Shown here: in pieces, positions 8,656 through 59,590 of the stretch
Numbering within the stretch: position 1 is the stretch's first letter
How the letters are laid out: each line of letters begins with the position of its first letter
NCBI GenBank assembly: GCA_028279755.1
Contig: JANQNB010000018.1
Location: forward strand, 134,611 to 198,610
Source: Candidatus Nanoarchaeia archaeon
GTDB lineage: Archaea > Nanobdellota > Nanobdellia > Woesearchaeales > UBA525
DNA: 64,000 nucleotides
Reading direction: 5' to 3'
Made by a program: the position numbers and the translations under genes
Notes under the pieces: model-generated
Told to the model about the DNA's origin: nothing
The model's database searches: none
Seen by the model: the letters and a program-made list of their open reading frames with translations, nothing else

Positions 8656-8752
8656 GCCCCTGTAGTGTAGTCCGGCCAATCATACCGCCCTCTCGAGGTC
8701 GCTTCGGCGCCAGAGCAAGGCGGTGACTCGGGTTCGAATCCCGGCGGGGGCA
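8656..8752 (+). tRNA. tRNA-Glu (anticodon CUC) with a ~22-nt intron at 37/38.
   Basis: The acceptor strands GCCCCTG and CGGGGGC pair (one G-U) and are followed by discriminator A. The anticodon stem is CCGCC/GGCGG with loop CU-CUC-G, interrupted by AGGTCGCTTCGGCGCCAGAGCA. The T arm is TCGGG-TTCGAAT-CCCGG. A TATA box TTTAAAAA lies about 25 nt upstream. No CCA is encoded. Confidence 0.75.
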
Positions 8753-20746: not shown

Positions 20747-22381
20747 ATGAAACGATTACTCTGGTGCCTCGCACTCCTGCTGTGCCCGCTTGTCGTGAGT
20801 GCGGCATTCGACAGCAGCTCGTGGCAATACATGCAAGAGATCAGCGTCGATGCTGACGAACCGGTGAAGCTCGTCCTCGATCCGAGCCTGCTGGCCAATG
20901 CGCAGCTCGACGGGCACGACCTCCGCGTGACAGAAGACGCGGTCGAGATCCCGTACAAGCTCTCGTTGGAAGGCAGTGCAGAACAGCAACGAACCATTGC
21001 GAGCATGACTGCCTCGTCGACGCGGCCGGACTTCCGTTCAGTCTCGTATGCGCCGGTCAATATGATCGATGGTGACGCATCCAATAGCGAGGGCGCGTAT
21101 TTCCAGATCGACGGCACAGTCGATACGGAAGTCTCGTGGATCGTCGCAGACCTCAGCTCTTCTGTGTTGAGTACAAAAGCCCGGTTCACGCTTGGGAGCG
21201 CGCGCTTTACGCATGTCCAAGTCCAAGGCAGCAACGACCTCGCGTCGTGGACCTTGCTGAAGCAGAAGACGAAAAGCGGCAGCCAGGTGAGCTACGCGCC
21301 GAGCAGCTTCCGCTACGTTCGCTTCACGCTCTGGCACAAGGGCGATCTCGTGATCAACGAGCTGACGATGTATGGCGAGAGCAGCGGCTGGCTCCTGTTC
21401 AACGCGCAGACCGGCAAGACCTACATGATCTATTACGGCAATGCGCAAGCAGGCGTGCCTGACTATGATCTTGAAGGATTGTATACTGTCGCGACCACGC
21501 CCTTCGTGTACACGCTCGGCGAGTGGGTGAACCCGTTGTTTGTCGGCGACGCTGATGAAGACGGCGTCGGCGTGGGCGACAATTGTCCGTCAGTCGCCAA
21601 TCCTTCGCAGCTTGACAGCGATAATGATGATCTTGGCGATGACTGCGACAATTGCCCTGGCGTGAGCAACCCTGGCCAAGGGGACCGTGATCACGACGGT
21701 GTGGGCGATGCGTGCGACAACTGCGCAGCGATGTACAATCCCAACCAGTATGACGACAACTTCAATGATATCGGCTGGGTATGCGACGACGAGGATCGCG
21801 ATGGCGTGGTGAACAGCGAAGACAATTGCGTGCCTGGCGCAAACCGTGATCAGCAGGACGTCGACCGTGACGGGGTTGGCGATGCGTGCGAGGACGACGA
21901 CGGCGACGGGGCTGCAAACTATATGGATAATTGCCCAGAGCTTGCGAACGCTGACCAGGCTGACAGCGAAACAGAGAATGGCAGGCTGGTTGGCGATGGT
22001 GTTGGCGATGCGTGCGACAATTGCGTGAACGTCAGGAATGCGGATCAGCGCGATACTGATGAAGATGGTGTCGGAGATGCCTGCGAGGACGACGACCAGG
22101 ACGACGTGCGCAATGATGCTGATAACTGCCGGCTTGTCGCGAATGCTGACCAGGTCGACTGGGACAGCGACGGCTTGGGCGATGCCTGCGACAATTGCCC
22201 GGAACATAAGAACCCGAATCAGCGCGATGTCGACAGCGACGGGCTTGGCGATGCCTGCGACGAGACTGAGAGCAGGCTGCTCGAGCAGAAGTGGATCGTC
22301 TGGAGCATCATCATCCTCGCGATACTCGTGCTCGGCTTCTTCGCCTACCGGATGTACCAGACGCCGGGAGGGAAGGAATGA
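20747..22381 (+). CDS. Secreted, membrane-anchored surface protein with an N-terminal discoidin-like domain and about 10 thrombospondin type-3 (Ca-binding) repeats.
   Basis: There is a signal peptide [19 protein letters not shown]. Repeats of the form [24 protein letters not shown] recur, and a C-terminal TM helix is present. The DNA shows matching internal repeats. Confidence 0.75.
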
Positions 22382-54107: not shown

Positions 54108-54746
54108 GTGCAGCAAACATCCGCATACTACCAAGCGGTCGAACGCCACGGTGTGACCAGGTTTCTGGAAGTCAATCCCTTGCTGCGCGACGGCGCCTTC
54201 TTCTACCTCTGCACGCTCAGATACTTATTCCATCAAAAAGCGCCAGAGCACGCTTGGCACAGCAGCCGTGTCGGACAGCAAGTCGGCCTGATTCTTGATC
54301 CCTCTGCAGCCTTTGCTGCTGACCTGCACGACATCGGGAAACTCGGTATCGATGAAGCCATTCTGAACAGCAAGCAACGCCTCACTCCAGTACAATTTGT
54401 CGAGATGCAGCGCCACAATGAATACACCAGGGAGCTGCTCCGACGCGTGGAGCCACACGGATTCCCTTTGCTGAGCACCATGGCGGCGAGCGCGCACGAC
54501 TATCGCCGCCGCCGACGCATGCCGATCACGTTCCCAGACCGGCGACGCAATGATCCCTATCTTGCCATTGTCGCGCAAGTGCTGCAGGCCTGCGACGCTT
54601 TTGATGTCTTCATCCATGGCCGGCCGTACCAGCCGCCAATCGAGTTCGAGGAAGCGCTCGACAAGCTGCGGCAACTACGTATCGAGCAAGGCCTGGTCGA
54701 GGAGATCCGGGATTCCCACCGCTTCCGGACGCGAAGTGTGGCTTAA
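54108..54746 (+). CDS. HD-domain phosphohydrolase.
   Basis: ADLHDIGKLGI (HD motif) and the surrounding His/Asp residues are present. Confidence 0.6.
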   Translation: MQQTSAYYQAVERHGVTRFLEVNPLLRDGAFFYLCTLRYLFHQKAPEHAWHSSRVGQQVGLILDPSAAFAADLHDIGKLGIDEAILNSKQRLTPVQFVEMQRHNEYTRELLRRVEPHGFPLLSTMAASAHDYRRRRRMPITFPDRRRNDPYLAIVAQVLQACDAFDVFIHGRPYQPPIEFEEALDKLRQLRIEQGLVEEIRDSHRFRTRSVA

Positions 54747-54789
54747 GGACAATATTCTTAAATCATTCCACATTACACATTTTTAGGGG

Positions 54790-55344
54790 GTGGTGTTTGT
54801 GAACAAAACACTCATGTTAATAGTTCTGATAGCAGTAGGTGCCATGCTGGCAATGCCGGTGCATGGCGCAGCCTTTGCCAAGTACGACGGCATCGATGGC
54901 GAATCGAAAGACGCAGACCACGACAAGTGGATCGACGTGCTCAGCATCGACTGGGGCGTCCACAAGCCTGGCGGTGGCATGACCGGCCAGTCACGAAGGC
55001 GTGGCGCGGCTGTTGTTGAGGATCTTGTCCTGACGACAGAGTTTGAGAAATCGAGTCCGAAACTGCAGGAGAAATGCCTGAAAGGAGAAGTGATCCCGAA
55101 GCTGGAGATCGAGCTGACCTCAACCTATGGCGGCGCGCGCGCGACCTATCTCCGCTACGAGCTGAAGAACGTGATGATCACGAGCTATAAGATGACTGCG
55201 TCTGGCAACGACGAAGCAGGGCCGCCGACCGAGGAATACGGCGTCAACTTCGAAGAGATCAAGGTGACGTACACCGAATACGACGGATCCGGCTCGAGCC
55301 TGGGCAATGTCGAGATGGAGTACAAGGTCGAAGAGGGCGAGTAG
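54790..55344 (+). CDS. Hcp-family (type VI secretion tube protein-like) protein with an N-terminal signal peptide.
   Basis: After the signal sequence MVFVNKTLMLIVLIAVGAMLAMPVHGAAFA comes YDGIDGESKDADHDKWIDVLSIDWGV....FEKSSPKLQEKCLKGEV...YLRYELKNVMITSY...SGNDEAGPPTEEYGVNFEEIKVTY. This aligns with Hcp1 (GESKDK.H...IDVLS..WG; DKS.P.L...C; L.IT.K.V.ISS; E.V.LNF..V.V.Y). Confidence 0.75.
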   Translation: MVFVNKTLMLIVLIAVGAMLAMPVHGAAFAKYDGIDGESKDADHDKWIDVLSIDWGVHKPGGGMTGQSRRRGAAVVEDLVLTTEFEKSSPKLQEKCLKGEVIPKLEIELTSTYGGARATYLRYELKNVMITSYKMTASGNDEAGPPTEEYGVNFEEIKVTYTEYDGSGSSLGNVEMEYKVEEGE

Positions 55345-56193
55345 ATGCGTCTCGCTGTTGCCATTTTGATGTGCTTACTCATCATCCCCGTAGCAGCAGC
55401 GATGCCATACGTCCCTGACTATTCGATCTTCTATGAGAAGTCGGCTGGATCACCTTTGCTTACAGAAGGTGATTATTACAACCTTTTCGTTCTGTCTATA
55501 CATCTGCCTGATGGCGGCACAGGGCCAACACGGCGCCGAGGCGCTCCAGTGACTGGCGCTGAAGTGACGCGCGAGTTCGACAAGGCAAGCCCGAAACTGC
55601 AAGAAGCTATCCTGAAAGGCGACACCTTCGCAGCAGTCAGGCTCACCATGCCAGGCAGCAGCGATATGATCCTGCACAACGTGACCTTCACGAATTACTC
55701 GTTCCACGCATCTGGCAACGACGAGGCAGGACCGCCGACAGAGACTATCACCTTGGATTTCGAGGAGATAACCTGGGGTGAGAACGTCACCAATACGACC
55801 AACACCACGAACCTGACCGCGCCTTTCACTGTGACGATCGAGCCAGACTACGCGAAGATCAAGAAAGGCGAGAACGTGAAGTACCTTGTTGTGATCGACG
55901 CTGACGAAGGATTCAACGAGCTCGTGCAGCTCGAAATGGACCTTGACATCCCACTCGGCGACCAACACTATATTATCGACACCTACGGGCCGGACTATCC
56001 GGTGCGACTGAACTACACGCTGATCGTGCCCTCGAACCTGCCGTTCGGCTTTGTCGCGCACGGCACGATCATCGGCATCAGCGAACCCTATCAAGCGACA
56101 GACGACTTCATCGTCGTGGTCGAAGGTCCGGCCATGGGCGTGGGCAAGTTCCTGAACGGGATTGACAGATTCTTTGAAGGATTGTTTGGTTGA
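55345..56193 (+). CDS. Second Hcp-family domain protein with a signal peptide and a ~130-aa Asn/Thr-rich C-terminal extension.
   Basis: After MRLAVAILMCLLIIPVAAA comes TRRRGAPVTGAEVTREFDKASPKLQEAILKGDTFAAVRLTM...HNVTFTNYSFHASGNDEAGPPTETITLDFEEITW. The extension carries NVTNTTNTTNLT sequons. It starts directly after the stop of the first Hcp-like gene. Confidence 0.7.
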   Translation: MRLAVAILMCLLIIPVAAAMPYVPDYSIFYEKSAGSPLLTEGDYYNLFVLSIHLPDGGTGPTRRRGAPVTGAEVTREFDKASPKLQEAILKGDTFAAVRLTMPGSSDMILHNVTFTNYSFHASGNDEAGPPTETITLDFEEITWGENVTNTTNTTNLTAPFTVTIEPDYAKIKKGENVKYLVVIDADEGFNELVQLEMDLDIPLGDQHYIIDTYGPDYPVRLNYTLIVPSNLPFGFVAHGTIIGISEPYQATDDFIVVVEGPAMGVGKFLNGIDRFFEGLFG

Positions 56194-56198
56194 TAAGA

Positions 56199-56600
56199 AT
56201 GTACACTGCTTCTGAACGGCGACGCCTGTACTTTGACGAGGCGACGAATCGCCGATTGCTGCTGCAGCTTGGACTCGAGCAGCTCACCACACCTGACGGC
56301 GCAAGCGACTCCCCGCTCATCGGCGTGCTCGAATGGTCATTCGCACCGCATTACAACCACCTCGAGAAGCCGCCCAACATCGTCGTTCTCGGTCCACCGG
56401 TCAGAATGAGCCTTCAGCAACCAAAAGTCCGCCTGCAGCACGACGGGGCTCGCTGGTACTACCATTTGCCACCGTTTGGTTTGCCGCTCTACGTTCGCCG
56501 CGGGAAACCAAGGCCTCAACCCTATTTCCTTCGCGCCATCAATCTCTTTCTCGCTTCAGAAGCACAGCGACAGAGGTATTTTCCTGAAACTCAGACGTAA
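56199..56600 (+). CDS. Hypothetical protein immediately downstream of, and overlapping, the Hcp-like pair.
   Basis: ORF 56190..56600 has a TTG start overlapping the upstream stop. The ATG at 56199 is chosen instead. Confidence 0.4.
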   Translation: MYTASERRRLYFDEATNRRLLLQLGLEQLTTPDGASDSPLIGVLEWSFAPHYNHLEKPPNIVVLGPPVRMSLQQPKVRLQHDGARWYYHLPPFGLPLYVRRGKPRPQPYFLRAINLFLASEAQRQRYFPETQT

Positions 56601-56669
56601 TGGGGCTACGAGGATAACTCGAGCGGAGCTCTCGTAACCTCTCATCCCCAGTTCTCACTATGTTCGAAC
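56601..56669 (-). repeat. tRNA-Pro 3' trailer element ending in a 14-nt direct copy of the tRNA 3' end.
   Basis: Plus-strand TGGGGCTACGAGGA at 56601..56614 repeats 56670..56683. In tRNA sense the trailer is GTTCGAAC...GAGAGCTCCGCTCGAGTTAT + CCTCGTAGCCCCA. Confidence 0.6.
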
Positions 56670-56787
56670 TGGGGCTACGAGGATTTGAACCCCGGTTGCC
56701 AGGTGTTTTGATCTCGGATCAAAACCCGCGAGGACTTTGTCCGAGCATGCCCAAACCTGGAGTGATACCAAGCTACACTATAGCCCC
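56670..56787 (-). tRNA. tRNA-Pro (anticodon UGG) with a ~45-nt intron at 37/38.
   Basis: In tRNA sense the acceptor is GGGGCTA/TAGCCCC plus A. The anticodon stem is CCAGG/CCTGG with loop UU-UGG-G then an intron. The T arm is CGGGG-TTCAAAT-CCTCG. Confidence 0.7.
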
Positions 56788-56797
56788 GGTGAATCTG

Positions 56798-56881
56798 TTT
56801 AAGGGGCTTGACTGAGCGTCAGCGAAGGAAACCCCTGCTTCCCAGGGTAGCGACGCTGATACCGAGCTACACTATAGCCCC
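56798..56881 (-). ncRNA. tRNA-Pro 5' leader element: a promoter-proximal tRNA-like RNA that begins with a 17-nt copy of the tRNA-Pro 5' end.
   Basis: In tRNA sense it reads GGGGCTATAGTGTAGCT (= tRNA-Pro nt 1–17) CGGTATCAGCGTCGCTACCCTGGGAAGCAGGGGTTTCCTTCGCTGACGCTCAGTCAAGCCCCTTAAA. Its 5' GGGGCT and 3' AGCCCC can pair like an acceptor stem. A TATA CTATATATAGG lies about 33 nt upstream. The 31-nt core is identical to that of 18451..18528. Confidence 0.6.
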
Positions 56882-57322: not shown

Positions 57323-57502
57323 TACTCATCCCCCCGTGGCAACGGGGGGTGTCGCATGAATTCTTAAGCGTTTCGACAGGAAGCTTTTTAAACGAATCAG
57401 GGTTCGCAAAGCGTACCATTTTACCTGGCAGCCAGAGCTGCGGTCCGCGTATCTAAGCCAAGGGGGCTGGACGACCCCGTCATGTTCATAGGTGATACTC
57501 AC

Positions 57503-58258
57503 ATGGGAAAAGACAAGAAGGACAAGAAAAAGAAAGAGAAGCCGAAACGGCAGATCGTGAAGAAAGCGGCGAAGCCGAAAGCCAAGAAGAAATGGTTCAG
57601 CATCGTCGCACCGAAGAGCTTCAATAACCACGTGCTCGGCGAGAGCCTGGTGGAGAACGCGGACAAGCTCGTGGGCAAGAGCATTACAGTGAATCTGATG
57701 CACCTCACGAACGACATGCGCAACCAGGGCATCGAGATCCGGTTCAAGGTCGTGAAGACCGACGAGGGCAAGGGCCTGACGTCTGTGACTGGCTACGAGG
57801 TCCTGCCAGGCCAGATGAAGCGCGTCGTGCGACGCGGGCGTTCGAAAGTCATGGACAGTTTCATTGTCCGGTGCGGCGACGTGCTCGTGCGGATCAAGCC
57901 GATCGTGTTCACCGCGAACCGCGCATCAGCAGGAGCGCAGACCACGATCAGGCTCGCAGTGCGTGAGAAGATCAAGCACCTGCTCAAAGGAACGACCTTC
58001 GACCAGCTTGTGCAGGAACTGATCCAGCACAAGCTCCAGCGAACCCTGAAGGACGTCGGGCTGAAGACGCACCCGATCAAGAGCGTCGAAGTCAAGAGCT
58101 GCGCCATTCTCAGGCAGAAGCCGAAAGAAGCGGCTGAAGAGCCTCAGGAGCCAGAACCTGCAGTTGAGAAAGCAGAGGAACCTGCGCCGGCTGAAAAACA
58201 GGAAGAAGCTGAACCTGCGAAGAAAGAAGCGGCAGAACCAGCTCCTGAAGAAAAGTAA
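57503..58258 (+). CDS. rps3ae: Ribosomal protein S3Ae (eS1) with a Lys/Glu/Pro/Ala-rich C-terminal tail.
   Basis: MGKDKKDKKKKEKPKRQIVKKAAKPKAKKKWFSIVAPKSFNN...GKSITVNLMHLTND is the canonical S3Ae N-terminus. Confidence 0.88.
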   Translation: MGKDKKDKKKKEKPKRQIVKKAAKPKAKKKWFSIVAPKSFNNHVLGESLVENADKLVGKSITVNLMHLTNDMRNQGIEIRFKVVKTDEGKGLTSVTGYEVLPGQMKRVVRRGRSKVMDSFIVRCGDVLVRIKPIVFTANRASAGAQTTIRLAVREKIKHLLKGTTFDQLVQELIQHKLQRTLKDVGLKTHPIKSVEVKSCAILRQKPKEAAEEPQEPEPAVEKAEEPAPAEKQEEAEPAKKEAAEPAPEEK

Positions 58259-58306
58259 GGAAAACCTTTTTATTCTCTCCTTCCGACCATGGTGAGAGGT
58301 GAGGAC

Positions 58307-59590
58307 ATGGGCTTTGTGCTAGACTGGCAGAAAAAACTCGGCTACAAGAAAGACCCCTTCATGCCAGAGCCTGACAAGAAGATTTCTACGTACTTTGTCG
58401 ATCGCGAGCAAGAGCGCGAGAAGCTCAACCTCTTCGTGATCAAGCAGCACCGCTTCGGCATTGTGCACGGCCCGAAAGGCGTTGGCAAAAGCACGCTTGT
58501 CGGCTGGCTGCAGGAACAGCTCGGGGTGCGCGTCCGCCGTGTCAGCTTCGCAGGCAAGGTCGTGACCAAGCCAAAAGACTTCTTCGAGCAATTCCTCCAT
58601 GAAAGCCTGAACGTGGTCGAGAAGAAAGTGACCAGGCCGCAGGAGAAACTCAAGAAGGACGAGATGGAGCCCTTTCTGCTCCAGAAGCTCAGGAAGAAAC
58701 GAGTGCTGGTCATCGTCGACGACGCGCAACTGCTCGTCAAGCAGAACAAGGATCTGCTCAAGCATTTGCTCGAGGCCTGCCCGCAGAGCCAGGTCTTGCT
58801 GGTGCTGGAACGCGTGCTGAAAGAGCACGAGCACTATGGAGCCGATCAGCTCAAGCTCGCGCTCGAAGACATGTCAGAAGCAGGGCTGGAAGCGATGCTC
58901 AAGCGGCGCATCGAGCTTGCCGGCGGCGTCGGCACCTATCCCTTCGATAAGAAGGAAATCCAGGGGCTCATCACGAAAGCGAAGAGCAATCCTGTCAAGC
59001 TGCTCGAGCTGGCACGGGAGCGCGCGATCGAGCTCAGCCTGAAAGCTGGGCCGCCGCCGAAACCAAAGCCAAAACCAAAACGGAAGCCTGTGAAGAAAGC
59101 GCCAACTCCAAAAGCATCAAAAGAAGCAGGCCCTGTACCTGAAACTGCGGAGGCAGAAGCCATCGAAGTCCATGAGGAATTGCAGGAGGAACAGCAGCGA
59201 GTCCCAGAAGCGAAGGACAAGCCGAAGAAATGGTTCTCGATCAAGTTTGTCAAGGACGATGAGGAAGAGAAAAAGGGCATCACGCTCCGGAAGGCGGACG
59301 AGCGAAGCCCGACTGAGATCCACAAAGAGCATAAGCAGAAAATGCTGAAGGCGGCACGACCGAAAGAACCGGAGAAAAAGCAGAAGGACGAGCACCACTA
59401 CCTCGACGAGGAACTGCTCTCGCCCAGCAATGAGGCGGACGCAGAGATGCTCAGCGAGATCGTCGAAGCGGCAGGCGAGGAGATAGAAGTCGAGCAGGAA
59501 GTCAAGAAGGAGAAGAAACAGCCTGAAGACGGCGTGGAAGTCGAGGACGTGATACAATCACTGGTCAAGGAAATGGATAAGAAAGGGTGA
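58307..59590 (+). CDS. P-loop AAA-type ATPase with a long low-complexity K/E/P-rich C-terminal region.
   Basis: FGIVHGPKGVGKSTLVGWL is the Walker A and RVLVIVDDAQLL is the Walker B. The tail contains PKPKPKPKRKP and is KE-rich. Confidence 0.6.
   Translation: MGFVLDWQKKLGYKKDPFMPEPDKKISTYFVDREQEREKLNLFVIKQHRFGIVHGPKGVGKSTLVGWLQEQLGVRVRRVSFAGKVVTKPKDFFEQFLHESLNVVEKKVTRPQEKLKKDEMEPFLLQKLRKKRVLVIVDDAQLLVKQNKDLLKHLLEACPQSQVLLVLERVLKEHEHYGADQLKLALEDMSEAGLEAMLKRRIELAGGVGTYPFDKKEIQGLITKAKSNPVKLLELARERAIELSLKAGPPPKPKPKPKRKPVKKAPTPKASKEAGPVPETAEAEAIEVHEELQEEQQRVPEAKDKPKKWFSIKFVKDDEEEKKGITLRKADERSPTEIHKEHKQKMLKAARPKEPEKKQKDEHHYLDEELLSPSNEADAEMLSEIVEAAGEEIEVEQEVKKEKKQPEDGVEVEDVIQSLVKEMDKKG

Follow-up and report, generated by a model that had tools for sequence, protein, structure and literature searches.

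Adjacent signal-bearing Hcp genes of a Woesearchaeota archaeon probably encode a surface-tethered, T6SS-independent assembly

Two abutting genes in a 64-kb stretch of DNA (hereafter the window) probably constitute a Sec-exported Hcp cassette that acts beyond the cell membrane of its host, a tiny archaeon of symbiotic type in the Woesearchaeota, independently of any T6SS or contractile injection system (CIS), as a surface-tethered assembly. Hcp is held to be a hallmark of T6SS: the canonical protein has no signal peptide, polymerizes in the cytoplasm within the sheath, and leaves the cell only via the contractile machine. We know of no T6SS that has been described in archaea. A cleaved Sec signal would take a protein out of the cytoplasm, where T6SS tubes assemble. 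Given Sec signals in an archaeon and no T6SS or CIS genes nearby, we reasoned that the exported or surface role is independent of T6SS; and since both products have export signals and one of them a putative surface anchor, the Hcp fold seems to have been reused as a surface structure. The features of the locus are as follows.

54745..54779, + strand: upstream block kept in orthologs, with the A/T-rich promoter-like element AATATTCTTAAAT (54751-54763)
54786..54794, + strand: Shine-Dalgarno-like GGGGGTGGT, ending 4 nt 5' of GTG 54799, as read from the sequence
54790..55344, + strand: ORF1, 184 aa as listed
54799..54867, + strand: predicted ORF1 signal peptide, 23 codons, MNKTLMLIVLIAVGAMLAMPVHG, followed by AAFAKYDG (from in-frame ortholog leaders)
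54868..55344, + strand: mature ORF1 Hcp domain (158 aa) and stop codon (from PF05638, identity to P0007, and PDB Hcp matches)
55345..56193, + strand: ORF2, 282 aa
55345..55401, + strand: predicted ORF2 signal peptide, 19 codons, MRLAVAILMCLLIIPVAAA, followed by MPYV (from sequence, hydropathy, and an AxA site)
55477..55779, + strand: degenerate Hcp-like domain of ORF2, ~aa 45-145 (from PF05638, identity to ORF1, AF2, and Foldseek)
55780..55824, + strand: sequon-rich linker of ORF2, NVTNTTNTTNLT, with four N-X-S/T sites at aa 147-156
55825..56124, + strand: Ig-like 8-strand beta-sandwich domain of ORF2 (from HMMER relatives and the AF2 model)
56143..56193, + strand: C-terminal amphipathic helix of ORF2, KFLNGIDRFFEGLFG, and stop codon; putative envelope anchor (from the AF2 model)
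56190/56199..56600, + strand: ORF3, 136/133 aa; 402 nt from 56199

By sequence, ORF1 is a full-length Hcp. The T6SS_HCP profile (PF05638) matched it at 115.6 bits (E=2.3e-33; cutoff 23.5 bits) over positions 1-129 of 129, upholding the Hcp match of ~130 aa claimed in a preliminary description of this DNA, and solved Hcp structures (4w64 and 1y12) matched it with E values of 1e-16 to 1e-18. NCBIfam TIGR03344 (TssD) scored ORF1 at 59.3 bits against a curated cutoff of 58.9, and ORF2 at 25.3. The Hcp genes of canonical Planctomycetota T6SS loci are ~80% identical to ORF1; P0007, at 81% identity, lies inside a canonical T6SS locus together with TssC, TssE, TssF, TssG, ClpV, VgrG, and a PAAR-like gene. 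Viral contigs scanned with ORF1 gave no match.

The most likely true start of ORF1 is GTG 54799, with the frame running to 55344. In the ortholog alignment, the ATGs of P0002 (locus L024) and P0006 (L025) fall on this GTG and the leaders are homologous in frame; the start at 54790 proposed earlier was replaced on these grounds. The DNA 5' of both orthologs also aligns with the 54745..54779 block, whose A/T-rich element may be read as an archaeal BRE/TATA promoter, and GGGGTGGT in L024 lies at the same spacing from the P0002 ATG as seen before the ORF1 GTG. Comparison of L024 with L025 over the signal peptide gave a pN of 0.075 and a pS of 0.44, and dN/dS for ORF1 and its orthologs was 0.11-0.13 (dS >1.4), indicating purifying selection. 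The leader cores reached Kyte-Doolittle values of 2.98 in ORF1 and 3.41 in ORF2 (12-aa window), with a -3/-1 site (VHG before AA) and an AxA site (AAA before MP), respectively. With the ORF1 leader conserved among orthologs, these values bear out the earlier impression of cleavable-looking hydrophobic leaders on both ORFs. We predict that the Sec-type leader of ORF1 is cleaved; the leaders could also be uncleaved membrane anchors.

ORF2, whose ATG directly abuts the ORF1 stop codon, is on sequence grounds a degenerate Hcp paralog. It shares 53% identity with ORF1 across 91 aa, and PF05638 matched it at 35 bits (E=2e-8; cutoff again 23.5 bits) over profile positions 42-127 only. The preliminary assignment of ORF2 to the Hcp family thus stood, while its alignment length of ~130 aa shrank to about 85-100 aa. 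Missing from ORF2 are the 'FxKxDGIxGES' motif of the N-terminus, the last strands, and a portion of a hairpin; with the first and last conserved strands gone, its Hcp part may not oligomerize. When full ORF2 was modeled by AF2 with an Hcp-only alignment, the Hcp-like part reached a pLDDT of 70-89 and the C-terminal half remained below 50; the latter was redone with a domain alignment (see below). In a Foldseek search of the PDB, the top matches of the Hcp-like part were all Hcps, though none scored well (E 1.6e-3 at best, with a target TM of 0.4-0.55), and phage tail and eCIS tube proteins were weaker matches of the ORF2 model. No match to ORF2 was found among GTDB species representatives, and a word-indexed search of 5.8 billion proteins returned only ORF2 itself and distant Hcps.

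ORF2 has seven N-X-S/T sequons: four at aa 147-156, two in the Hcp part, and one in the C-domain. Analogous N/T-rich linkers are present in the relatives P0250 and P0254, and the ORF2 linker is probably N-glycosylated. Where a sequon-rich extension of ~130 aa had been described, we found one of 137 aa; the seven sequons are those of the whole protein, two of them in the Hcp part.

An exhaustive HMMER search with the C-terminal part of ORF2 yielded 73 relatives of its C-domain, and the AF2 model of this domain, built from a 45-sequence alignment, reached a pLDDT of 87 and a pTM of 0.75. Its PDB matches were generic Ig, macroglobulin, CARDB, and RbmA folds only, and no Pfam or NCBIfam family matched. 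All ORF2-like relatives begin with a signal peptide. Giant surface proteins repeat the domain as many as 21 times, and it is also present in small proteins ending in PGF-CTERM; since the ORF2 extension recurs in such proteins, it is not a toxin domain. The 'Hcp-effector fusion' considered in the preliminary description does not fit an Ig-like beta-sandwich that is repeated in surface proteins.

The ORF2 tail was modeled as a helix at lower confidence (pLDDT ~60), with a hydrophobic moment of 1.93 and a mean hydropathy of 0.37. Its pattern, 'GP..(V/I)G..LN.L....LF', is kept in P0250, P0254, P0263, P0258, and P0261, and a PGF-CTERM or transmembrane anchor takes the position of the ORF2 helix in P0255, P0260, P0264, P0275, P0304, P0308, and L027. 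Neither PF18204 nor any NCBIfam family matched ORF2, in which both a PGF motif and a transmembrane tail are lacking. PGF-CTERM/archaeosortase surface glycoproteins are laid out as signal peptide, passenger, and tail, an arrangement also seen in L027 and in the relatives P0255 and P0323, which have the PGF-CTERM layout of PF18204. ORF2 resembles these glycoproteins in its sequon cluster and in the position of its C-terminal helix, and differs from them in that the helix is amphipathic only. We found no description of an Hcp domain as a PGF-CTERM passenger in the literature searched.

We then looked at the surroundings of Hcp genes. Among the 40 large ORFs of the window, none matched the Pfam families of sheath, baseplate, VgrG, or ClpV, or those of a CIS or phage-tail cluster (sheath, tube, baseplate gp25, gp6/J, and spike). 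Genes of these four kinds were likewise absent from the precomputed calls over 44.8-56.9 kb (sheath, baseplate, VgrG, and ClpV), and tblastn with T6SS proteins found no T6SS gene in the window; the three approaches agree with the earlier report that sheath, baseplate, and VgrG are absent from it. Of the T6SS core genes TssB/C, TssE, TssF, TssG, TssK, TssM, VgrG, and ClpV, the window contained none. Across the Hcp loci, T6SS genes flanked five of the nine without a signal versus none of the 14 with one (Fisher p ~0.004). Hcps with a signal peptide or lipobox were found in Nitrosopumilaceae, Dehalococcoidia, Verrucomicrobiae, Gemmatimonadota, Saprospiraceae, Thermoanaerobaculia, and a Proteobacteria MAG, and they were scattered over several parts of an NJ tree; the N-terminus of a Bathyarchaeia Hcp (L019) is cut off, so its signal status is not readable. 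Databases label such proteins 'T6SS tube protein Hcp', and neither signal-peptide Hcps nor Hcps of archaea were described in the literature that our search returned, most 'hcp' papers being on the hybrid-cluster protein or ordinary T6SS. The Hcp family, with a member ~80% identical to bona fide tube subunits, thus also comes with Sec signals, lipoprotein signals, and archaeosortase anchors. Signal-bearing members occur in one-membrane organisms (DPANN, Nitrosopumilaceae, and Dehalococcoidia), suggesting that the automatic label misleads in archaeal and monoderm genomes and that the tail-tube fold has been co-opted outside the cytoplasm more than once.

The pairing of ORF1 with ORF2 is not confined to the window. 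We defined the cassette as a gene 1 encoding a signal peptide and an Hcp of about 150-165 aa, with, directly 3', a gene 2 whose product begins with a signal peptide, continues with an Hcp-like domain and the unnamed Ig-like domain, and ends in a helix or anchor. This arrangement recurs in at least three further archaeal contigs: it was found in the window, L104, L105/L106, and L107, at unrelated chromosomal sites, and all gene-1 and gene-2 members of the four cassettes have leaders. The NCBI name of P0263 assigns L104 to Woesearchaeota, L105/L106 has archaeal-type RNase HII and SMC, and the L107 cassette bears a PGF-CTERM archaeosortase signal. Most loci from a three-sequence metagenome scan were ordinary Hcp loci; L027 alone was informative, with a single fused gene (signal-peptide Hcp, C-domain, and anchor) that adjoins aIF2-gamma. 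The ORF2 C-domain was absent by tblastn from the Hcp loci searched. In all four archaeal cassettes, the best-scoring partner of the gene-2 Hcp domain was its own gene 1; the gene-1 Hcps are only 29-39% identical between cassettes, and the C-domain is common to all. Matched pairs could also arise without physical contact, by repeated local duplication or gene conversion. A compact and conserved two-gene cassette offers a direct test bed for an extracytoplasmic job of Hcp.

ORF3, a basic protein of 133 aa encoded on the same strand 5 nt past the ORF2 stop codon, is probably a lineage-specific neighbor and not a member of the cassette. It has neither a signal peptide nor a transmembrane segment, matched nothing in Pfam or NCBIfam, is a singleton 90% cluster, and was absent from all other Hcp loci when sought by tblastn; the genes downstream of the other cassettes are unrelated housekeeping genes. 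The coupled 402-nt gene noted earlier is present as described, and no related locus conserves it with the cassette. The codon adaptation index of ORF3 (0.654) is host-like; ORF1 (0.71) and ORF2 (0.69) lie close to the mean of host genes (0.70) and are host-like in GC3 as well. Neighbors in the window include L37ae, Pcc1, prefoldin beta, and S3ae, and the SRP54 encoded in the window shares 88% identity with a protein of Candidatus Woesearchaeota; SRP54 and these archaeal genes place the previously noted archaeal context in a Woesearchaeota (DPANN) host. An independent Logan assembly has the identical gene arrangement. Signs of a tRNA-linked genomic island were sought, and neither an integrase nor a far repeat was seen; copies of the tRNA end flank the adjacent tRNA, only 55-77 nt away.

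We propose that the ORF1 and ORF2 products, by virtue of their N-terminal signal peptides, would pass through SecYEG and be cut by signal peptidase I. ORF1 would then be released as a free 158-aa Hcp forming a six-membered ring, which is still expected because of the ~80% identity to genuine T6SS tube subunits. ORF2 would be kept on the envelope by its amphipathic helix, with the Ig-like stalk and the probably N-glycosylated linker above it, so that the Hcp-like domain would be displayed outermost, where it most likely docks or co-assembles with free ORF1 rings. A ring or short stack of Hcp would thereby be attached to the surface, where it would bind a partner cell or a protein ligand and not inject; by analogy, the cassette may serve in adhesion or ligand binding. 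Two explanations in the preliminary description are accommodated here: a 'Sec-exported Hcp-like ring protein' fits the family match and the Sec leaders, with the ring itself predicted, and a 'surface or adhesion structure' fits the Ig-like surface domain, the helix in anchor position, and the sequon cluster, with adhesion again argued by analogy. The biology of DPANN archaea depends on surface contact with their hosts, and the cassette nominates a new surface component for them. It is possible, though unlikely, that the assembly is a non-contractile extracellular appendage in which rings or a short nanotube of free Hcp stand on a glycosylated, membrane-tethered Hcp-like base. If so, it would be a new surface organelle made from the phage-tail-tube fold, serving host-cell attachment or exchange in DPANN and other archaea; the lipoprotein Hcps of Dehalococcoidia and the Hcp pairs of Verrucomicrobia would be bacterial counterparts, and a widespread T6SS-independent branch of Hcps would have gone unrecognized.

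Other roles for exported Hcps were weighed against this surface-tethered assembly. In T6SS, effectors bind in the Hcp lumen, and Hcp rings exported to the surface or periplasm of a target cell might act as a decoy or sponge that re-binds and neutralizes injected Hcp-dependent effectors. The attackers would be neighboring T6SS-armed bacteria, e.g., Planctomycetota, and identity would be kept for the sake of the effector-binding lumen. The ~80% identity of ORF1 to the Hcps of T6SS-bearing Planctomycetota under strong purifying selection, the scattering of signal-bearing Hcps in the NJ tree among lineages not known for T6SS (archaea and Dehalococcoidia), and the 0/14 count of flanking T6SS genes would all be compatible with such a role. 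However, the Hcp clades of the other archaeal cassettes are quite different (29-39% identity), so the tracking of a single attacker does not generalize; the degenerate, anchored partner and Ig-like stalk look structural, and there are no effector or immunity genes nearby and no precedent, which together make a decoy improbable. We regard as more doubtful still an exported toxin-delivery or chaperone module. The Hcp pair would then escort or present an enzyme or toxin that is secreted; ORF2 would be the effector, of the 'extended Hcp' kind, and ORF3 would confer immunity to it. Hcp-toxin fusions with downstream immunity genes are known, as are PLD enzymes as T6SS effectors; ORF3 lies only 5 nt 3' of ORF2, and in two verrucomicrobial loci (L006 and L026) an exported Hcp and Hcp2 are followed by a signal-bearing PLD-family protein, the two PLD-family proteins being 69% identical. 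Against this, the ORF2 extension is a repeated Ig-like surface domain, the other cassettes are without ORF3, and no enzyme is linked to any of the four archaeal cassettes. A toxin fusion was rejected on the Ig-like C-domain and the lack of conservation of ORF3 with the cassette.

It is very unlikely that ORF1 and ORF2 supply ordinary tube subunits to a T6SS or CIS whose other genes lie elsewhere in the genome, with leaders that are artefacts of over-extended ORFs. Two gene callers do begin both genes at internal ATGs, without leaders (166 aa and 263 aa), the database name is 'T6SS tube protein Hcp', and the genome evidence is the 64-kb window. Yet the ORF1 leader is in frame with the ortholog ATGs, shares a Shine-Dalgarno and a promoter-like block with them, and is under purifying selection; leaders are present on all members of four cassettes and PGF-CTERM on relatives, and, as noted, T6SS is to our knowledge not described in archaea. 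A mis-called start was rejected on the in-frame leader and purifying selection. That a bacterial fragment was chimerically joined to an archaeal contig during assembly or binning, as bacterial proteins 80% identical to ORF1 might suggest, has hardly any probability: the genes sit between L37ae/Pcc1/prefoldin and S3ae on one contig, the Logan assembly concurs, codon adaptation and GC3 are host-like, archaeal-looking promoter-like and Shine-Dalgarno elements are shared with the orthologs, and the cassette is also present in other archaeal contigs. A chimeric contig was rejected on the archaeal flanks, the Logan assembly, host-like codon use, and recurrence of the cassette.

The proposed surface-tethered cassette was compared with known systems. 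ORF1 shares fold, family, and the whole profile with T6SS Hcp/TssD (P. aeruginosa Hcp1, PDB 1Y12; P0007). It differs in its cleavable-type Sec signal, as predicted, its single-membrane archaeal host, the absence of nearby sheath, baseplate, VgrG, and ClpV genes, and its anchored paralog as partner. Like extended Hcps of the 'Hcp-ET' type, ORF2 combines an Hcp with a C-terminal extension and a small downstream gene; unlike them, it has an N-terminal signal peptide, an Ig-like repeat and putative anchor helix as its extension, and a downstream gene (ORF3) that is not conserved. Phage tail tube and eCIS tube proteins have distantly the same fold, whereas the sequence family of ORF1 and ORF2 is Hcp and no tail or baseplate genes accompany them. 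The verrucomicrobial module of L006 and L026 consists of a signal-peptide Hcp, a signal-peptide Hcp2 with TSP3 repeats, and the signal-peptide PLD-family protein. The resemblance lies in a tandem of two exported Hcps, the first canonical-like and sharing 75-76% identity with ORF1, the second divergent and extended C-terminally by a surface-type region. The module departs from the cassette in that this extension is made of Ca-binding TSP3 repeats where ORF2 has the Ig-like domain and helix, and in its linked PLD gene. Its host is diderm, and its products are therefore likely bound for the periplasm or the outer surface.

All three tandem ORFs of the preliminary description are present in the window:

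54790..55344 (+), ORF1 as listed, an Hcp gene
55345..56193 (+), ORF2, a degenerate Hcp paralog with an Ig-like domain and a C-terminal helix
56190/56199..56600 (+), ORF3, a 133-aa basic protein

The ATG of ORF2 directly abuts the ORF1 stop codon, and that of ORF3 lies 5 nt past the ORF2 stop. In the proposed profile search, ORF1 matched Pfam T6SS_HCP from end to end (PF05638; profile positions 1-129 of 129, 115.6 bits, E=2.3e-33) and passed the cutoff of NCBIfam TIGR03344 narrowly; its matches to Hcp proteins of known structure had E-values of 1e-16 to 1e-18. Its sequence places it in the Hcp/TssD family. ORF2 covered profile positions 42-127 only (E=2e-8, 35 bits) and fell below the TIGR03344 cutoff; ORF3 had no match in the Pfam search. 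The two Hcp proteins share 41% identity over 151 aa with leaders counted, and their Hcp cores 53% over 91 aa. A multiple alignment showed that ORF2 lacks the N-terminal motif 'FAKYDGIDGES..H..WIDVLS.DWG', ~9 hairpin residues and the last strands. The view that both ORFs align with Hcp thus stands for ORF1, but for ORF2 the first and last conserved parts are gone. A 214-aa antisense ORF inside ORF2 (55450-56094, -) has a codon adaptation index of 0.51 and a GC3 of 0.56, well under those of host genes, and is therefore almost certainly not a gene.

Automatic gene calls begin ORF1 and ORF2 at internal ATGs, and the hydrophobic leaders are lost; ortholog leaders and upstream DNA speak against these starts. 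Two relatives, P0002 (locus L024, 77% identity to ORF1) and P0006 (L025, 71%), begin with MKKYVLLIVLACVAVMLVMPAEA/AVFAKY and MKKYLLVIVLACVAVMLIMPVEA/AVFAKY, where the slash marks the predicted cleavage site. In a DNA alignment, GTG 54799 of the window coincided exactly with their ATGs, downstream of a common Shine-Dalgarno motif, GGGGTGGT, and a conserved A/T-rich promoter-like block. ORF1 is therefore read as a protein of 181 aa whose first 23 form the leader (MNKTLMLIVLIAVGAMLAMPVHG/AAFAKYDG), and its mature N-terminus falls exactly at the Met-Ala position of signal-less Hcps. The corresponding region of ORF2 reads MRLAVAILMCLLIIPVAAA/MPYV. Each leader has one basic residue, a 14-16-residue hydrophobic core (Kyte-Doolittle, 12-aa window: 2.98 for ORF1, 3.41 for ORF2) and small residues at -3/-1, consistent with cleavage of both; reading by eye, we saw no twin-arginine motif, lipobox or pilin-type site in either. 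Among the three orthologs dN/dS was 0.11-0.13 with dS >1.4, and within the leader pN was 0.075 against a pS of 0.44 (L024 versus L025), so the ORF1 leader is translated and under selection. The hydrophobic signals first noted on both Hcp ORFs are thus real features, and that of ORF1 is in frame in P0002 and P0006.

We give little credence to the idea that these are ordinary tube genes with mis-called starts, and a chimeric assembly is less probable still. Best matches place the host in Woesearchaeota: the window's SRP54 shares 88% identity with a protein of Candidatus Woesearchaeota, and Woesearchaeota/Nanoarchaeota account for almost every named match. Codon adaptation (ORF1 0.71, ORF2 0.69, host mean 0.70) and GC3 (0.72, 0.68 and 0.68, respectively) are host-like, and gene order is identical in an independent Logan assembly, all of which makes a contaminant or chimeric contig very unlikely. 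Upstream of the pair are an HD-domain gene, L37ae, Pcc1, prefoldin beta and UPF0147; downstream, an intron-containing tRNA and S3ae. Forty large ORFs spread over the 64 kb encode housekeeping or unknown products (among them H+-PPase, SMC, SRP54, decarboxylases, TPR proteins and a STAND ATPase); as first reported for sheath, baseplate and VgrG genes, no member of a ClpV, sheath, baseplate or spike family is among them. Another likely surface/adhesion protein of this archaeon is encoded at 20747-22381 (+); its 544 aa include an F5/8 type C (discoidin) domain and thrombospondin type-3 repeats. Long Lys/Glu/Pro-rich low-complexity tails occur on the STAND/AAA_22-type ATPase (58289-59590, +) and ribosomal protein S3ae (57482-58258, +).

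Beyond its Hcp-like part, ORF2 continues into a linker, NVTNTTNTTNLT, in which four sequons are stacked; this bears out the sequon-rich extension noticed earlier. Searching exhaustively with HMMER, with aa 146-282 as query, we found 73 relatives of the Ig-like domain, which has no family in Pfam or NCBIfam. It occurs as 2-21 repeats within giant proteins, as a single copy in small signal-peptide proteins, and behind a transmembrane segment and Pro/Thr-rich linker. Its AF2 model (45-sequence alignment; pLDDT 87, pTM 0.75) is an 8-strand beta-sandwich followed by a helix, and Foldseek returned generic Ig-like folds only (Spo0M, RbmA, macroglobulin, CARDB; TM ~0.5). In the full-length model the Hcp part has a pLDDT of 70-89, and its best PDB matches, weak in score (E 1.6e-3 at best, target TM 0.4-0.55), are without exception Hcp proteins. 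The helix at the C-terminus, 'GP..VG.FLNGIDRFFEGLFG', has an amphipathic character (hydrophobic moment 1.93) and is kept as 'GP..(V/I)G..LN.L....LF' in many family members; in others a PGF-CTERM or transmembrane tail takes the same position. ORF2 itself carries no PGF-CTERM. By analogy, its helix may be an envelope-anchoring element. We rejected the Hcp-effector fusion suggested at the outset, since the extension is an Ig-like repeat domain of surface-type proteins and not a toxin.

The whole ORF2 architecture recurred in four relatives (P0250, P0254, P0263 and P0255/P0323; Pfam Hcp E-values 6.8e-22 to 4.3e-8). In P0255 there is a PGF-CTERM (E=1.7e-4), and in P0323, a longer member of its cluster, the signal peptide is visible; P0263 is named 'type VI secretion system tube protein Hcp [Candidatus Woesearchaeota archaeon]' at NCBI. 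Wherever the contig was readable, the next gene upstream encoded another signal-peptide Hcp, 174-185 aa long.

Table. Two-gene cassettes (locus; gene 1 leader/mature start; gene 2; setting)
Window; MNKTLMLIVLIAVGAMLAMPVHG/AAFAKYDG; ORF2; Woesearchaeota by SRP54
L104; MKLLAIFLLACMLVMPAYG/AAYLKIGDIKGE; P0263; 4-nt overlap, neighbours TFIIE-alpha, PTH2, SepF
L105/L106; VKLLSLVLLVFVLALPFAAA/SDQFYLSVKGQKQG; P0254; archaeal-type RNase HII, SMC nearby
L107; ...LLPGIVAA/PSPAYMWVTGNNQGDIEGS; P0255/P0323; CofH, HypD, MetRS nearby

At a fifth locus (L027), adjoining aIF2-gamma, a single gene combines signal peptide, Hcp, Ig-like domain and anchor. By these comparisons the cassette is conserved in archaea, in a different chromosomal neighbourhood at every locus. 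The 402-nt ORF3, initially described as coupled to the pair, is indeed close by, but has no counterpart at L104, L105/L106, L107 or L027. Gene-1 Hcps belong to different Hcp clades (29-39% identity), and the Ig-like domain is homologous in all. Every gene-2 Hcp domain scored highest against its own gene 1 (window 53%, L107 70%, L105 40%, L104 25%). Such matched pairs suggest repeated duplication or gene conversion inside each cassette, and are the expectation if both Hcp modules must fit each other.

ORF1 has 705 detectable homologs, mostly 159-aa signal-less Hcps of 75-83% identity. One of these, P0007 (81%), is flanked by TssC, ImpE, TssE, TssF, TssG and ClpV on one side and by VgrG, DUF2169 and a PAAR-like gene on the other. 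The nearest loci in GTDB species representatives are Planctomycetota (75-80%), four of which (L003, L005, L007, L008) have T6SS genes on both flanks. ORF1 thus groups by sequence with the genuine T6SS tube-protein clade. However, a T6SS Hcp is signal-less and linked to T6SS core genes, whereas ORF1 has a signal peptide and, within the window, no such link. Unrelated hydrophobic leaders occurred in 11 of the 119 other best ORF1 matches, at no fewer than five places in a neighbour-joining tree that, for such short sequences, is weak. Distant signal-peptide representatives came from Nitrosopumilaceae (L012, L018), Verrucomicrobiae (L006), Gemmatimonadota (L015, L020, L023), Saprospiraceae (L017), a proteobacterium (L021) and Thermoanaerobaculia (L022); Dehalococcoidia (L013, L014, L016) have a lipoprotein signal ('..VVGC') and a Pro/Thr/Glu-rich linker. 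No T6SS gene was found in the fetched flanks of the 13 signal-bearing loci, L026 or the window, versus 5 of 9 signal-less loci (Fisher p ~0.004, with flank lengths varying between loci).

Several of these Hcps have features of their own. The Dehalococcoidia products (L013:998-1837, L014:803-1573, L016:7348-8040), by sequence Hcp lipoproteins of monoderm bacteria, combine the lipoprotein signal (..LVVGC / ..LSSGC) and long linker with a 20-30-aa insertion in an Hcp loop. Further archaeal Hcps are those of Nitrosopumilaceae (L012:2156-2776, L018:5362-5925), solitary with a signal peptide and no ORF2-like partner in the fetched flanks, and of Bathyarchaeia (L019:1-447), with the N-terminus cut off. 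Signal-less Hcps of Acidimicrobiia/Ilumatobacteraceae MAGs (L010:9998-10477, L011:9998-10471; 58-70% identity to ORF1) have no T6SS genes within 10 kb; to our knowledge, their group, Actinomycetota, is not known for T6SS. A subgroup of signal-less Hcps (P0012, P0028, P0031, P0035, P0036, P0061, P0074, P0076, P0084, P0100, P0101, P0103) ends in a Ser/Gly linker and 4-10 lysines (e.g. ...SGSKKKKKKKK), unusual for a tube protein.

An analogous exported Hcp tandem forms a three-gene module in two Verrucomicrobia-type loci (L006:9430-12871, L026:4698-8120), with no T6SS genes near either. Gene 1 is a signal-peptide Hcp (75-76% identity to ORF1). Unlike the archaeal cassette, the module adds thrombospondin-type-3 (TSP3) Ca-binding repeats, carried with a C-terminal extension by the signal-peptide Hcp2 of gene 2, and a signal-bearing PLD-family protein (PLDc_2 x2; 69% identity between loci) as gene 3.

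The data show the anatomy, conservation, selection and genomic context of the pair; how it most probably works is our inference. Sec would export both products, and the C-terminal helix would hold ORF2 to the outside of the single membrane, where the Ig-like domain and a glycosylated linker would lift its Hcp-like module. After leader cleavage ORF1 would fold outside the cell and form Hcp rings, which would either dock on the tethered module or mix with it. This would give a surface-bound ring or short stack that may bind a protein ligand in the Hcp lumen or, if the archaeon is a DPANN episymbiont, a host cell. Alternatively, an exported Hcp could act as a decoy that soaks up T6SS effectors, which we consider unlikely; an exported module that escorts a toxin appears slightly more doubtful, since PLD linkage in Verrucomicrobia favours it but the archaeal cassettes give it no support. 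In a full-text literature search we found no account of Hcps with signal peptides, of Hcps in archaea or of archaeosortase substrates bearing an Hcp domain, and databases simply auto-label signal-peptide and archaeal Hcps as T6SS proteins. The fold and family are known; the export route, architecture, domain of life and conserved two-gene form are new.

The intron-containing tRNA beside the cassette (56670-56787, -) lies 70 nt beyond ORF3; it scored 48.6 bits against Rfam tRNA, has a 48-nt insert in the anticodon region and was missed by ARAGORN. Exact copies of its ends (3' end GGGGCTACGAGGAT, 5' end AGCTACACTATAGCCCC) lie 55-77 nt away at 56602-56615 and 56865-56881. They may be scars left by integration or recombination, or else a second or split tRNA in degenerate form; an integrase was not observed. 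An intron is also implied for tRNA-Glu(CTC) (8656-8752, +) by its length of 97 nt, so that at least two of the four tRNAs of the window have introns.
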